Sequence record: PV574017.1
Length of the DNA stretch: 64,000 nt
DNA from: Escherichia phage EcM-vB1
Direction: 5' to 3' (one strand)
Part shown: in pieces, positions 14,975 to 24,347 of the stretch
Layout: every line of letters begins with the position of its first letter
Position numbering within the stretch: position 1 is the first letter of the stretch
Program-made: the position numbers and the translations under genes
The notes under the pieces: model-generated
The model's input: only the letters and a program-made list of their open reading frames with translations
Told to the model about the DNA's origin: nothing
Databases searched by the model: none

Positions 14975-16171
14975 ATGTTTCCAGTAACATTAGAAGATAC
15001 TGAAGGTAATGTTTTAACGGTCAACCCTCCTTGTTATGGGTTCCTTCAGCTTCGCAACTATAATGGTGGCGTTGATGAAGACGACGAAGATGATGACTAC
15101 TTCGACCCTAACATGTATGAGGCAACTCATGGATGGAATATGCACGTTCGAGTGTGGCATGAAGAAGCTAACGTTCGTAGTGCTGATGGGGAAGAGTTCC
15201 TGTTAAGCCGAGAGATGGATATGTGTAAAATCAAGCATATCTGGAACTCTGGAACTCATATGAAGATGTTAGGCTTTAGACGTTGGCGTGATGAAAAGCA
15301 TGTAGCTGAAGCTTTAAGTTGGTGTTCGTATGAAGATGAAGACACGCCCCCTAAGAATAACATTGAACGTTGGAACGACAAAAACCCTGAACATCGAACC
15401 ACACCTCGTGCTGTACTGGAAGCTATGGAAGCATTTGTGGACAAAGATCGTCCCTCCTGTTTACGCTGGCACGATAAAGGTTTTATGGGTGTAGCAACTG
15501 AAAATGTTCCTGCTGATCGTTGTCTATTCTATTTGATGTTAGATCGAACCTTCTATTGTGAAGATGAAGAGAGTCAAGTTGAAACCTTCCTTCATAAATG
15601 GTTGGTTGAAGGCTGGACAATCCTTCAGGCTTATGTTTACTCACGAATGGTTAGCACTTACACTAACCTCTTGGGAGAAAAGAAAGCAACTCTGGTTGGT
15701 AACGATTGGGATGCTTGTATCTTCCCAGCGTCGCTATTTACAGTCGGCATGGCTGATAAATACGCTGAAGCATTTCAAGTGCCTTGGCGTCAACAGTCAT
15801 ATAGAGATGGATGCGGTCATTTCCGTGATGAAGACTTTAAGTGGATTCATTACGAGAATGATGAAACAGCAGAATTACGAGTTAACAACTCAATGTTCTT
15901 GCCAGTGATGCACCCCGATCTAGTAAAAGACGGGTCAGAGACACTTAAAGGTGATAATCTTTTGGTTAACTTTACCCGTCGCGTGTCTAAAAATGAGAAA
16001 ACAGCTAACAGGTTAATCTACGGCATTCGTGCCGAGGCTAAAGACCTGTTCAACATCTACAACATCATTCAGCGATTTAGTAGTGGAACTCTGGACCAAA
16101 GTTCGGAGTATTCAGTGATTCCGTCCTCTGAGTGGGATGGTATTATGAGCGGATTATTTTTAGGAAAATAA
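14975..16171 (+). CDS. hypothetical acidic protein, first gene of amidoligase cluster
   Basis: 398-aa ORF, RBS GAGG; acidic stretch DEDDEDDDYFDP; no motif recognised. Confidence 0.6.
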   Translation: MFPVTLEDTEGNVLTVNPPCYGFLQLRNYNGGVDEDDEDDDYFDPNMYEATHGWNMHVRVWHEEANVRSADGEEFLLSREMDMCKIKHIWNSGTHMKMLGFRRWRDEKHVAEALSWCSYEDEDTPPKNNIERWNDKNPEHRTTPRAVLEAMEAFVDKDRPSCLRWHDKGFMGVATENVPADRCLFYLMLDRTFYCEDEESQVETFLHKWLVEGWTILQAYVYSRMVSTYTNLLGEKKATLVGNDWDACIFPASLFTVGMADKYAEAFQVPWRQQSYRDGCGHFRDEDFKWIHYENDETAELRVNNSMFLPVMHPDLVKDGSETLKGDNLLVNFTRRVSKNEKTANRLIYGIRAEAKDLFNIYNIIQRFSSGTLDQSSEYSVIPSSEWDGIMSGLFLGK

Positions 16172-16276
16172 AAGGTTAGTTATGTCAATCTCCACAACGA
16201 TCGTACCTCTTAATCTTCAACAGGATTTAGGGAACAGAAGTTCTTAGGTCGTGGGTGCTTCGGTATCCACAACTAC

Positions 16277-17152
16277 ATGCAAGGTCAAGTCGTATATGAT
16301 GTTAATGACGAATGTGTAATGGAAGATGGGCGCCATAAACGCTTCAACCGTGACATTAACTTGCAATTGGAGATGTTGAATTACTGGACCCACTCTTTTC
16401 ATGGTCATGTTCCATCTGATATTGAAAAGAACTTGATTGAAACAGCAGACATTATGAATTCTATGTCTTGCTATCGTGATGTATTTACTATCACTTCAGC
16501 GAACAGTGTTGCTGTCAATCTTCGTGAGCATCCAGCAGATCAGATCTTCACAGGACTTATGCTCTTCCGTAGTATTCTGGAAGGGCAATATCGTGGAATG
16601 GATTTCCTAGCAGAAGGAATTGAAGACAGGGAAGAGTGGCTGAAGCGTAAACGCATCGGCATCGCTCTAGTGTTAGCTGGGTTGGGTCGTGACTTCTTCG
16701 GTGGGTGGTCTCAACGAGGAAGAGCCAATGGGAGTAGCGAGAGCACCTCTATTGTTATTAACAACAATATGTCAGCAGCAGCTTTCCTTCCTTTGGTTGT
16801 AGACTCTGATGAATATACGAAGCAAGTGTGGGTTCAAAACCCCTTCGGTGTTGGCGACAATGAGAATGGTTATGTTCGTAACCACAACCAAGATGCCTTA
16901 CGAAGATTTGCTCGTGCTAAAGATCAAGACCCAGACGAGTATGAAACAATGTCAGAGTGGTTAAGACTCTGGTCCAACTGTTATGGTCACAAACGTGAAG
17001 CAATAGACGACAAGTTGGGAAACATTACGGTACAAAACTTTACATCCCGACTGATTCAAAGAACTGGAGCAGATTCCGGTCTTACTCTTGAAGAAGTTGG
17101 TAACACAATCTCATCTCTCTTTTCTGAACTAGTGGAGTATTACAATGACTAA
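16277..17152 (+). CDS. hypothetical protein; true start probably ATG 16191 via frame break near TTT 16226-16228
   Basis: no RBS at 16277; frame open upstream to 16214; ATG 16191 has AAAGG RBS but is in another frame. Confidence 0.5.
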   Translation: MQGQVVYDVNDECVMEDGRHKRFNRDINLQLEMLNYWTHSFHGHVPSDIEKNLIETADIMNSMSCYRDVFTITSANSVAVNLREHPADQIFTGLMLFRSILEGQYRGMDFLAEGIEDREEWLKRKRIGIALVLAGLGRDFFGGWSQRGRANGSSESTSIVINNNMSAAAFLPLVVDSDEYTKQVWVQNPFGVGDNENGYVRNHNQDALRRFARAKDQDPDEYETMSEWLRLWSNCYGHKREAIDDKLGNITVQNFTSRLIQRTGADSGLTLEEVGNTISSLFSELVEYYND

Positions 17153-17951
17153 GCGCAAATTCCTCATCGGCTCTGACCCTGAAATGTTCGTTCGTACTAG
17201 TAATGGTATCATCACTTCTGTAGCCGGTTTATTAGGCTGCTCTAAGGACGATAAGATCGCTCTGGCTAAGGATGTTCGTCTCCAAGAGGACAACGTACTG
17301 GCTGAGTTTGATATTGACCCACAGAGCGGTTTTGAAGCGTTTAACGATAACATGCAACGTGGTATTGATCTCACCAATAATGTCCTGAACAAACTGGACA
17401 TGGAAACAGCTCCGGGTGTTAGCTCTCACATCTTCACTGAAGAAGAGATGAAGACCTTTAACGAATCAGCGTTCATCTTCGGGTGCACTCCTGATTTCAA
17501 CGCCTTCACTGGTCAGAAAAACCCATCCCCGACTTCTCAGAATAAGGGACTTCGTACTGCCGGTGGTCACGTACATCTTGGCGTAGTTGGTGCTTTGGAT
17601 ATCACTCTGCAAACTCAGATGATGCTGGGTGTGTTGTGTGACTACTTCCTGTCTCTCCCAGCAGTAATTATGGACAAAGATACTCGCCGTAAAGAACTCT
17701 ACGGTAAAGCATCTGCAATCCGTTATAAAGACTATGGTATTGAATACCGTTCTCTGTCTAACTTCTGGATTAGTGATCGTGAAAACCGTAAGTTTGTTTA
17801 CGATCAGGTTGACAAGGTTGTTCAGCAGTGTGATATGTCCACCCTGATGGCATTGCACTCTCGCCTTCCGATTGAGAAGCTTCATGAAATCATTAACGGG
17901 AACAACGTTAAAGAAGCTGACCAGCAGATCAAACTCCTTCAGGTAGCATAA
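17145..17951 (+). CDS. putative amidoligase (carboxylate-amine ligase-like), paralog of next-but-one gene
   Basis: shares ordered motifs GSDPEMF / GGHVHLG / IEYRSLS with GIELELE / STHVHMD / IEFRISE of 18575 gene. Confidence 0.55.
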   Translation: MTKRKFLIGSDPEMFVRTSNGIITSVAGLLGCSKDDKIALAKDVRLQEDNVLAEFDIDPQSGFEAFNDNMQRGIDLTNNVLNKLDMETAPGVSSHIFTEEEMKTFNESAFIFGCTPDFNAFTGQKNPSPTSQNKGLRTAGGHVHLGVVGALDITLQTQMMLGVLCDYFLSLPAVIMDKDTRRKELYGKASAIRYKDYGIEYRSLSNFWISDRENRKFVYDQVDKVVQQCDMSTLMALHSRLPIEKLHEIINGNNVKEADQQIKLLQVA

Positions 17952-17960
17952 GAGGTTATC

Positions 17961-18578
17961 GTGAGCTTAGTAGCTGATTTTTCTCATTACTATAATGGTA
18001 CATGGATTGCTAAACGAGCAGGCAATATCAACCTTCCGTGTTTTGTGATTGGTGTTGAGCAGAGCGGTAACTTCCGCAGCGATGACTTCTCGCATGAAGC
18101 AGAACAGGCTCTGTATTTTGTTGTAGAGCAGTGGTACAAGAACGAGCATGGGAATCTCCGAAACACTACGATGAATATTCCAGTGTTCGACCCAACCTTG
18201 ATTCTTGAATCACCTGATGTTGGTTATCTGTTCCATAACGGTAACACTGTAAGCTGGACTCATATCAACCCTGTTCGTCAGAGAGCGAAGGGTTTGATGG
18301 GTAACAAGATTCGAAACGCTCCGGGAATTGGTCGTTCGATCTCTGGTGAAATGGTTTACAGTCTGTTCAATCCTGAATTTGATGGATTGGTTACTCGTTA
18401 TATTTACATCAATCCTACAGATGGTAAAGTGCATTATAAAGGTGCACTGGTAGGTCAGGTAGATCTGGAAGCACCTCGTGACTCTTATGGTCAACAACCG
18501 ATGCGACTTCTGGAGCATTTTCATCACATCTCTGAAAACCTTAGCAATTATAATATTACGTTGGTGGATTCGTTATGA
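17961..18578 (+). CDS. hypothetical protein within amidoligase cluster
   Basis: ORF in track, GTG start overlapping neighbours. Confidence 0.5.
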   Translation: MSLVADFSHYYNGTWIAKRAGNINLPCFVIGVEQSGNFRSDDFSHEAEQALYFVVEQWYKNEHGNLRNTTMNIPVFDPTLILESPDVGYLFHNGNTVSWTHINPVRQRAKGLMGNKIRNAPGIGRSISGEMVYSLFNPEFDGLVTRYIYINPTDGKVHYKGALVGQVDLEAPRDSYGQQPMRLLEHFHHISENLSNYNITLVDSL

Positions 18579-23678: not shown

Positions 23679-23860
23679 ATAAGTATAAAGTTCTGTTTAA
23701 AGATACTAATGATGCTGGTGATATGCGAGCTATGGACCTAGATGCTGACATGTTTAACTTCTCTGATGGCAAAGTGGCCTTCTTTCAGGGAAGTGAAGCT
23801 GTTGCAGTATTTGAAAGTGCAGCAATCTGTGGTGTAATCAAAATCTTTATTACAGAGTAA
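23675..23860 (+). CDS. hypothetical protein
   Basis: ORF in track, overlapping start. Confidence 0.4.
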   Translation: MNKYKVLFKDTNDAGDMRAMDLDADMFNFSDGKVAFFQGSEAVAVFESAAICGVIKIFITE

Positions 23861-23867
23861 TCTGCTT

Positions 23868-23892
23868 TAGCCTCTTCGAAAGAGGAGGCTAG
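23868..23892 (+). terminator. stable hairpin, possible terminator
   Basis: TAGCCTCTT-CGAAAG-AGGAGGCTA 9-bp stem; no clear U-tract. Confidence 0.35.
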
Positions 23893-23929
23893 TTCGGATA
23901 AACTAAACAAACCAACAAAGGTATAGATA

Positions 23930-24347
23930 ATGTCAGAAGTAATTTACGTAGCAACTTATGGTTCTCTTCGTCGTGGTCAAGCTAACTATTTAGTTAATGA
24001 CCGAGCTGGTGCTAAGTCAATTGGTGAAGGTTGGACTGAAGACAACTTTGATCTGTTCCGTTATGGTGGTTCCTACTTCCCGAGCATCTCTCGCACACAG
24101 CAATAACAACAAGCCTGTTCGTGTAGAAGTGTTTGCTACTGACAAAGCAGGTCTGGAAGGTCCGTATGACCGTCTGGAAGGTTACAACAAACGTAGCCCT
24201 GAAGACAGCTTCTATCAGCGTACTCAGATTGCTGTTAAGATGGACTCAGGTGAAACTGTTATCGCTTGGATTTATCATATCGACGAAGAACAAGATGTTC
24301 TGGTTGAATCTGGCGACTGGTCAGAGTATCTGAAAAGTGAATCTTGA
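23930..24347 (+). CDS. gamma-glutamyl cyclotransferase-like (AIG2/GGCT fold) protein, frame-broken around 24075-24100
   Basis: N-terminal YVATYGSLRRGQANY; C-terminal VRVEVFATDKAGLEGPYDRLEGY...RTQIAV in a different frame. Confidence 0.5.

Follow-up and report, generated by a model that had tools for sequence, protein, structure and literature searches.

A conserved podophage gene cassette with predicted amide- and gamma-glutamyl-bond chemistry in Escherichia phage EcM-vB1

Escherichia phage EcM-vB1 (record PV574017.1) carries, upstream of its primase-helicase gene, a cassette encoding three predicted ATP-dependent ligases, a glutamine amidotransferase and a gamma-glutamyl cyclotransferase, which we analysed in region 14975-24347 of a 64,000-nucleotide (nt) stretch of that record (the whole stretch being referred to as the window). 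As relayed by citing papers, Iyer 2009 and Hardies 2013 described this cassette, from comparative genomics, as a module for making peptide or gamma-glutamyl amide bonds (PMC10580990, PMC6256558, PMC5498523), and gave as its carriers phiEco32, 7-11, LUZ24, PaP3, tf, PA11, RIO-1 and CW02. The cassette is therefore already published and, refinements aside, its re-detection adds no new biology. Added here are the finding that the predicted fold of the gp88 protein has no match in the PDB, the assignment by sequence comparison of gp85 as a component across lineages, and the observation that GGACT-type and Peptidase_C26 proteins mostly alternate between lineages. We tentatively favour the reading, which in our judgement falls a little short of being probable, that the cassette encodes a cytoplasmic, ATP-driven pathway that would build and trim a gamma-glutamyl or peptidyl conjugate on a soluble, amine-bearing host acceptor in the course of host take-over.

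A preceding reading made from the letters of the DNA only (the sequence-only reading) had recognised five enzymes in this region and had proposed that together they form and trim amide, gamma-glutamyl or isopeptide bonds. The five calls were borne out by Pfam, with PHROGs and NCBIfam in agreement, although the ATP-grasp signal was weak in gp80 itself, and the proposed enzyme set is further supported by matches to RimK structures. The mention of amidoligases in phiEco32-type phages was likewise right: Pfam calls PF14395 'Phage phiEco32-like COOH.NH2 ligase-type 2', and the carriers listed by the citing papers match those found here. Profile searches thus placed the proteins in the expected families, no homologous cluster with a demonstrated function came to light, and no biochemical or genetic experiment on the substrate or role of the cassette was found in the searchable literature.

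The five enzymes of the cassette

Over its 9.4 kb, the region shows 100% identity to Escherichia phage EcK-vB and 97.1% to phiEco32; related phage records number 98, and the window is that of a Kuravirus. Its genes correspond one-to-one to phiEco32 gp88 to gp77, by whose names they are referred to here, and all are co-directional (+ strand). Directly 3′ of the region lie gp76 and then the primase-helicase gene gp75 (24566-26356). The description of nine to ten co-directional genes preceding the primase-helicase was correct in direction and position, but the conserved unit is smaller, since gp81, gp79 and gp78 are inserts. Between the window and phiEco32 there are 176 synonymous and 42 non-synonymous codon differences, with the genes that are broken in the window biased alike, showing that the cassette genes are under purifying selection.

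Two of the ligases are carboxylate-amine ligases. The first, gp86 (17145..17951, +), is a COOH-NH2 ligase of type 2, matching Pfam PF14395 with 34.0 bits (cut-off 25; E 2.3e-8) and phrog_3815 at 3e-118. The second, gp84 (18575..19678, +; phrog_7469), belongs to Amidoligase_2, with 33.7 bits against Pfam PF12224 (cut-off 22; E 4.5e-8). Invariant residues are D11, E13, E54, H142, H144, E200 and R202 in gp86 and E33, E35, E58, H95, H97, E186 and R188 in gp84, which in each family make up the same ordered signature, (D/E)xE...E...HxH...ExR, without exception. Despite this common signature, the two could not be shown to be paralogs, because the profile alignment between the families (hhalign) was not significant, with a probability of 1.3%. 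Neither family profile matched a PDB chain at E <= 1, and no cassette protein matched Pfam Pup_ligase. Placement of both ligases in the glutamine synthetase/glutamylcysteine synthetase (GS/GCS)-like superfamily rests on the literature.

The third enzyme, gp83 (19758..21787, +), is a class-II glutamine amidotransferase with an N-terminal nucleophile (Ntn) domain whose nucleophile is Cys1, and it matched GATase_6 with 55 bits (cut-off 27; E 1.1e-14). The Ntn domain is followed by a low-complexity linker, a beta-rich domain and two to three CxxC zinc ribbons. Conserved motifs comprise GHxRxAT, NAHPF, HNGT and DS, and the Cys pairs are present across lineages. In GlmS and PurF, conserved motifs of this type bind the head group of glutamine. 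With regard to the amidotransferase first delimited at 19758-21740, the start, the class-II Ntn assignment and the Cys-rich C-terminus all held, whereas the true end lies at 21787, displaced by an indel in an A-run. RefSeq names the protein GlmS. It scored far below the NCBIfam cut-offs for GlmS, PurF and AsnB, however, with 35.7 against a cut-off of 418 for TIGR01135 and 42.9 against 381 for NF001484; only residues 2-197 matched, and Pfam revealed no SIS domain. NCBIfam also returned a weak EgtC match (2.5e-4), and a phmmer search of the GATase N-domain against the PDB gave no useful match.

The gp83 start codon is an ATT at 19758, with an in-frame TAG stop two codons upstream (19752), an AGGTGGA Shine-Dalgarno sequence approximately 8 nt upstream of the start, and the catalytic Cys as the very next codon. 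Nearly all gp83 orthologs examined have this Cys directly after the start codon, which in other phages is ATG, GTG or TTG. The rare ATT initiation codon may act as a translational throttle.

The third ligase, gp80 (22231..23423, +; frame broken at a C-run around 22661), is a RimK-like ATP-grasp protein in which the ATP-grasp domain is followed by an acidic linker and a C-terminal domain of approximately 82 amino acids (aa), the C-terminal 82 aa forming a separate PHROG. The phiEco32 protein placed only weakly among RimK/Ddl ATP-grasp enzymes, scoring 15.9 bits against Pfam RimK, below the cut-off of 21. The ortholog of Proteus phage 3H10_20 reached 35.2 bits, above that same cut-off, and the family profile matched the RimK structures 7qyr, 5zct and 4iwx (1.6e-8 to 7e-7) over approximately 190 residues, and these two results together secure the ATP-grasp call. 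D-Ala-D-Ala ligases (Ddl) ranked next after the RimK structures. As RimK proper the protein failed, with 25.2 against a cut-off of 331 for the S6 ligase (NF007764) and 32 against 143 for rimK_fam. RefSeq names it 'ribosomal protein S6 glutaminyl transferase', a function not borne out here. The C-terminal domains of these ATP-grasp proteins vary between lineages.

The last enzyme, gp77 (23930..24347, +; PF06094, frame broken around 24087), is a gamma-glutamyl(amine) cyclotransferase of the GGACT/AIG2 type. Intact gp77 of phiEco32 matched PF06094 with 63.8 bits (cut-off 22.8; E 2.8e-17), and a YGSL-type motif ('YGSLRRG') is present in the translation of the window. A phmmer search of this GGACT protein against the PDB gave no useful match.

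No transmembrane segment was found in any cassette protein, which, together with the need of the ligases for ATP, points to a cytoplasmic chemistry. PADLOC models gave no match among ten proteins of the cassette region (gp88-gp80 and gp77), and PADLOC and NCBIfam returned nothing for the proteins without a family assignment.

Distribution, partner proteins and integrity of the cassette

The distribution of the components was followed by iterative search in nine loci from different phage groups, and phage records were counted by tblastn against 50,697 of them. Matches to gp86, gp84 and gp80 were obtained in 306, 301 and 313 records, respectively, with matching genus counts, so that the cassette is present in approximately 300 of the 50,697 records (about 0.6%); GGACT proteins of the gp77 type were found in 185. 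In the nine loci, gp86, gp83 and gp80 were present in every lineage sampled, as was gp84 (its copy in phi14:2 falling slightly under the Pfam cut-off), and gp77 was present in most. Iterative search recovered gp85 and gp82 in Kuravirus, Grimontviridae and Bruynoghevirus, while by sequence gp88, gp87, gp81, gp79, gp78 and gp76 were confined to Kuravirus. Every full cassette seen was in a phage of a Gram-negative host.

Gene order was conserved along with gene content. The succession of an X gene, the type-2 ligase, X3, Amidoligase_2, the amidotransferase, DUF7195, ATP-grasp and GGACT, and then the primase-helicase, recurred in LUZ24 (gp14-gp22), UFV-P2 (ORF19-29, the numbers being those of its open reading frames, ORFs), Vp_R1, Proteus 3H10_20 (with GGACT placed further downstream) and five metagenomic loci, and Kuravirus, Bruynoghevirus, Vicosavirus and Grimontviridae have nearly the same order. 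The same enzymes were found rearranged in Zobellviridae, in CVT22, K4 and phiM6, and in the crAss-like Cellulophaga phage phi14:2. At the level of sequence comparison, these patterns mark the cassette as a co-inherited functional unit.

The enzyme for removing gamma-glutamyl groups differs between lineages. Most cassettes of the Zobellviridae type carry a Peptidase_C26 gamma-glutamyl hydrolase, with GGACT not detected, and the same was seen in PA11-like phages and CVT22, in whose loci we searched ±10 kb. From the list of C26 matches, VPp1-like Vibrio phages, CW02 and Klebsiella Zobellviridae probably also have C26 in place of GGACT, and phiM6 has both. The two enzymes are unrelated although both cleave gamma-glutamyl amides, and their largely alternating occurrence across lineages suggests that the pathway needs a step in which the gamma-glutamyl group is removed.

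Besides the enzymes, the cassette includes conserved partner proteins. The gene for gp85 (X3; 205 aa; 17961..18578, +) always lies directly 3′ of the type-2 ligase gene. Homologs were found in Grimontviridae and LUZ24, and an hhalign comparison with the proteins occupying its position in K4, CVT22 and phiM6 gave E 8e-5 over 139 columns, by which gp85 would be a component of the cassette throughout its lineages. Its AlphaFold2 model was poor (pLDDT 56.5) and unsuited to structure search. The most conserved stretch, residues 84-147 (…ESPDVGY…SWTHINPVRQRAKGLMGNKIR…), was predicted by AlphaFold2 to be disordered; it could serve in docking or as a substrate. On metagenomic contig ERZ27275009 k141_8500, a gp85-like ORF (10796-11341) lies in a gap without a called gene, next to an Amidoligase_2 protein with a C-terminal extension of approximately 350 aa. 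A fusion of X3 with the ligase was considered for this locus and rejected, as X3 is a separate uncalled ORF and the 624-aa protein is an Amidoligase_2 with a long tail.

The small basic protein gp82 (21790..22023, +; isoelectric point 9.4) is a DUF7195 protein (Pfam PF23825, 4.7e-17), always encoded directly after the amidotransferase in LUZ24, Vp_R1, 3H10_20 and the five metagenomic loci, and its C-terminus is not conserved. A role as a ribbon-helix-helix DNA binder, to which the sequence pattern had pointed, was rejected, hhalign against CopG and Arc giving a probability below 1%, and neither DUF7195 nor gp85 qualified as a tag of the Pup or LysW type, because Glu, Gln or Gly is not conserved at the end of either protein. 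This gene was one of four whose products had been described as free of recognisable motifs, a description that also failed for 23430-23678, which is gp79, a transcription factor of solved structure.

At the 5′ end of the region, gp88 (X1; 398 aa; 14975..16171, +) has no family assignment, and its fold, although confidently predicted, had no match in the PDB. It is followed by gp87 (X2; 16182..17152, +), which measures 323 aa once a break at a G-run around 16230 is repaired. Foldseek against viral models matched proteins of approximately 300 aa encoded 5′ of the ligase gene in Proteus 3H10_20, and Cronobacter GAP52 and Aeromonas LAh_8 each gave two matches. Aligned by hhalign, the family profiles of gp88 and gp87 matched weakly (E 0.0011 and probability 20% across 120 columns). 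Taken together, these results suggest that X1 and X2 are a pair of fast-diverging paralogs. For gp87, phmmer also returned weak links to the X2 protein of Proteus phage.

The remaining genes of the region are Kuravirus inserts. The small acidic protein gp81 (22004..22228, +; phrog_13464) had no homologs in other cassette-bearing lineages, and gp78 (23675..23860, +), a protein of 61 aa with one hydrophobic stretch (maximum KD19 2.07), had none beyond Kuravirus. Between gp80 and gp78, within the region but outside the cassette, lies gp79 (23430..23678, +), which matched chain 'gp79' of PDB entries 9m7y and 9m7z (E 1.1e-51) and is absent from 7-11/GAP52 and the other lineages. It is a middle gene whose product displaces host sigma-70 and stabilises the phage sigma factor gp36 (PMC12276001, PMC8948821). 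In phmmer, residues ~30-80 of gp79 also matched repeat proteins of the TAL-effector type (E 1.4e-8 to 3e-4), no stretch being significant by itself, which probably reflects a helical-hairpin or compositional similarity.

Several frames of the region are interrupted by changes in run length: a G-run (G4>G3, ~16230) breaks gp87, an A-run (A6>A5, ~21545) shifts the C-terminus of gp83, a C-run (C6>C5, ~22661) splits gp80 into two ORFs (22231-22686 and 22713-23423), the loss of one TC unit from a TC repeat (~24087) splits gp77, and a T-run (T5>T4, ~24486) breaks gp76. The frames 22231-23423 and 23930-24347 are therefore not single frames in the window as given, but both are full-length after run repair. 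Repair of single runs, carried out for four of them, restored full-length proteins with 97-99% identity to phiEco32 (gp87 312/323, gp83 672/676, gp80 395/397 and gp77 137/139 identical residues). The indels were restricted to the EcK-vB and EcP-vB assemblies, which have only the A-run change in common (EcP-vB having a separate deletion of its own in the C-run), and genomes 99.5-99.9% identical lacked them, with FS2B not comparable at the TC repeat. Because they are changes of run length only, are confined to these assemblies, are absent from near-identical genomes and are mended by repair, they are probably sequencing or assembly errors in the deposited record.

The four interrupted frames of the region might otherwise have suggested that the genes are not a functional unit at all, being instead a chance run of auxiliary genes or decaying pseudogenes. 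This reading is already refuted: the order is kept across unrelated phage families, the genes co-occur in the approximately 300 records, synonymous differences prevail in the codon counts given above, and the indels, all in homopolymer or TC runs of the EcK-vB and EcP-vB assemblies only, disappear upon single-run repair.

Neither sigma-70-like sites (26 against 31 expected) nor matches to the gp36-type promoter TAATGTATA (14 against 20 expected) were enriched, and none of the latter lay just upstream of the cassette. Exact matches to this published TAATGTATA element occurred at 2360, 33571 and 40195 on the + strand and at 40003 and 50428 on the - strand, leaving none between 2369 and 29404 on the + strand, so that the cassette seems to have no phage-sigma promoter of its own and to be read from upstream promoters. 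No convincing terminator was found inside the cassette. Upstream of it, terminator-like hairpins with T-runs at 12403-12422 (GGGAGG…CCTCCC) and 14403-14419 may mark boundaries of transcription units in the early region.

Candidate roles of the cassette

In the build-and-trim pathway that we tentatively favour, the enzymes would be soluble and cytoplasmic, and transcribed with the genes just before those of the replisome. The ligases gp86, gp84 and gp80 would activate carboxylates as acyl-phosphates and couple them to amines, the building block presumably being glutamate. In gp83, the Cys1 Ntn domain would hold a glutamine or gamma-glutamyl head group and either give the amide nitrogen or hydrolyse a gamma-glutamyl amide, and in a presumed later step gp77 would take off the gamma-glutamyl group as 5-oxoproline. 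X1/X2, X3 (gp85) and DUF7195 (gp82) would be co-inherited partners, perhaps tailoring enzymes or specificity factors. As acceptor we envisage a soluble cytoplasmic amine, which might be a cell-wall precursor, a polyamine-type amine or a new small peptide, and host take-over would be the purpose. The gamma-glutamyl group would be a handle carried only transiently, on the pattern of the Puu/Pau, EgtA/EgtC and BtrJ/BtrG pathways. In favour of this reading, ligases and gamma-glutamyl-removing enzymes, all centred on Glu or Gln, resemble the transient-handle pathways. The family assignments, active-site motifs, shared gene order, alternation of GGACT with Peptidase_C26, cytoplasmic character and codon counts given above also count for it, as do the immediate expression of cassette genes in Pseudoalteromonas phage HP1 (PMC7082346), the middle-gene timing of gp79 and the host-dependent selection seen in evolved Bruynoghevirus-like lines (PMC11450229).

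A number of points weigh against it. No result here points to a substrate, and no oxidase, decarboxylase or other tailoring enzyme is recognisable between ligation and removal. Appendages such as the zinc ribbons and beta-rich domain of gp83 and the variable C-termini of the ATP-grasp proteins are more usual in macromolecule-recognising enzymes than in those for small molecules. RimK, to which gp80 is closest among solved structures, modifies the C-terminus of a protein, and the extremely fast divergence of X1/X2 is easier to reconcile with a macromolecular partner that co-evolves than with a universal metabolite. Moreover, Peptidase_C26 has the class-I amidotransferase fold and could be a glutaminase, which would weaken the argument from its substitution for GGACT.

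These same features bear on a protein-directed system, in which the ligases would put glutamate or short glutamyl chains on a host protein, a virion protein or gp85, and the Ntn and GGACT enzymes would trim them. We regard this as rather unlikely, though it has models in RimK glutamylation and in the isopeptide chemistry of PafA/Dop pupylation: the GS-like enzyme PafA joins the gamma-carboxylate of glutamate to lysine, GGACT acts on epsilon-(gamma-glutamyl)-lysine, and the closest solved ATP-grasp relative, RimK, glutamylates the C-terminus of ribosomal protein S6. It would also account for the conserved non-enzymatic partners, with the conserved stretch of gp85 predicted to be disordered, as a docking or substrate segment would be, for the zinc ribbons and variable C-terminal domains, which suggest macromolecule recognition, and for the fast divergence of X1/X2. 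In a directed-evolution study of a Bruynoghevirus-like phage, missense changes arose in the genes for the amidoligase and the amidotransferase in both independently evolved lines (PMC11450229), a host-dependent selection on cassette genes that again fits a protein target. Nevertheless, no target was identified, gp80 reaches only 25 bits where the S6-ligase equivalog requires 331, and neither DUF7195 nor gp85 ends in the conserved Glu, Gln or Gly of Pup and LysW. The more specific proposal of a writer and eraser of a macromolecular mark, in which the ligases would glutamylate or peptide-tag a protein, the zinc ribbons and the variable ATP-grasp C-terminal domain would pick that target and Ntn and GGACT would trim the mark, is in our estimate unlikely; if it is true, no protein modification of the RimK or Pup kind was known before as a means of phage host take-over or counter-defence.

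The acceptor has also been sought in the cell wall. According to this view, stem-peptide precursors (UDP-MurNAc-peptide or lipid II) would be amidated in the cytoplasm or given additional amino-acid or gamma-glutamyl linkages, and the altered wall would block superinfection or tune lysis. Stem peptides are known to be amidated by MurT/GatD and by the class-II amidotransferase AsnB1/LtsA, the cassette enzymes appear to be cytoplasmic and ATP-dependent as precursor-modifying enzymes are, D-Ala-D-Ala ligases come next after RimK among the ATP-grasp profile matches, and all full cassettes seen belong to phages of Gram-negative hosts. The label 'peptidoglycan modification cassette' is itself a published one (Iyer 2009; Hardies 2013; Duhaime et al. 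2017), the proposal going back to the first two as far as the citing papers relay it (PMC10580990, PMC6256558, PMC5498523), and in Pseudoalteromonas phage HP1 the cassette genes are expressed immediately (PMC7082346), which fits as well. However, an experimental test was not found in the searchable literature, and the module proteins contain no Mur-ligase, Fem-type or lipid-II-binding domain and no membrane segment. A lytic cycle of tens of minutes renews little of the sacculus, and a universal, conserved target leaves the very fast divergence of X1/X2 unexplained. We therefore doubt that peptidoglycan is the target.

Finally, the cassette might make an amino-acid-type hypermodification of the phage DNA or the nucleotide pool, thereby explaining the restriction-modification resistance of Gordonclarkvirinae, which is reported to be remarkable and to come with no known modification pathway (PMC11990801, BASEL). 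The window contains 30 EcoRV, 10 EcoRI, 10 EcoKI and 96 EcoP1 sites, so that the resistance of Kuraviruses is not explained by site loss. The cassette adjoins replication genes in every lineage (lying between the primase and uracil-DNA glycosylase genes in phi14:2), its amidotransferase carries zinc ribbons, and Pfam matches to amidoligase and amidotransferase have been reported beside thymidine-hypermodification genes on metagenomic contigs (Lee et al. 2021, Weigele laboratory, PMC8989533).

Other evidence speaks for unmodified DNA. Native-versus-amplified nanopore sequencing of Vicosavirus Rembedalsseter revealed nicks only and no base modification (PMC11780129), yet by tblastn this phage carries the cassette. 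Site avoidance in the window is strong (CCWGG 3 against 94 expected, GATC 133 against 293 expected, and no BamHI, PstI, SacI, EcoO109 or StuI sites), pointing to exposed, recognisable DNA. No hydroxymethylase, 5-HMUDK, aGPT-Pplase, TET/JBP or transglycosylase was found, the ORFs of the early region not having been scanned one by one. Downstream of the cassette, the window encodes PhoH and PolA, and also a dCTP deaminase (28232-28765; DCD, 3.6e-34) and ThyX (31255-31911; Thy1, 1.9e-43), the latter two indicating ordinary dTMP synthesis and arguing against the published idea that deoxyuridine replaces thymidine. Adjacency to replication genes is also common to all non-structural genes of small podophages. 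DNA hypermodification by the cassette is thus unlikely, and that it should explain the resistance of Gordonclarkvirinae we consider highly improbable. The restriction-modification resistance of Kuraviruses nevertheless stands as a linked puzzle alongside the cassette.

Whichever acceptor is involved, few other gene blocks outside replication and virion structure are as widely conserved in podophages of Gram-negative bacteria as this cassette, whose carriers include therapeutic Pseudomonas Bruynogheviruses, Kuraviruses of E. coli, marine Zobellviridae and a crAss-like phage. A genome of 45-77 kb invests heavily in encoding three ATP-dependent ligases together with two enzymes that process gamma-glutamyl groups, so that solving the cassette would reveal a new chemistry of host take-over or a new modification. 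The Kuraviruses of E. coli K-12 (BASEL Bas86-93) make it genetically tractable; one of them, Bas90 (SkaterBoy), is 98.8% identical across the region.

Comparison with known systems

The cassette shares single elements with several characterised enzyme systems. Within the RimK/LysX/MptN clade of ATP-grasp enzymes, RimK is the best solved match of the cassette family, from which gp80 differs by its acidic linker, its extra C-terminal domain and scores far below the equivalog cut-offs. With GlmS, PurF and AsnB, gp83 shares the N-terminal Cys1 Ntn glutaminase domain and the glutamine-binding motifs, but it has no SIS, phosphoribosyltransferase or PP-loop synthase domain.

Transient gamma-glutamyl handles are used in the putrescine (PuuA/PuuD), ergothioneine (EgtA/EgtC) and butirosin (BtrJ/BtrG) pathways. 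In such pathways, a gamma-glutamyl ligase of the GS/GCS-like or ATP-grasp type is encoded in one operon with a C26 hydrolase, a class-II Ntn amidohydrolase or a cyclotransferase of the GGACT fold. The cassette is not orthologous to any of them, its proteins scoring far below the family cut-offs, and it has three ligases rather than one and no recognisable oxidase, decarboxylase, carrier protein or acyltransferase. In the PafA/Dop system, GS-like ligases make a gamma-glutamyl-lysine isopeptide, and writer and eraser are encoded together; from this system the cassette differs in having no Pup-like tag that ends in a conserved Gln or Glu, no Pup_ligase match and no proteasome context.

Thymidine hypermodification clusters (Lee et al. 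2021) likewise lie near replication genes, but their defining genes were not found here. With the 'gamma-glutamyl amide-linkage' operon described for phiEco32, LUZ24 and phiRIO-1, by contrast, the cassette is one and the same, and the window differs from it only by the run errors of its assembly.

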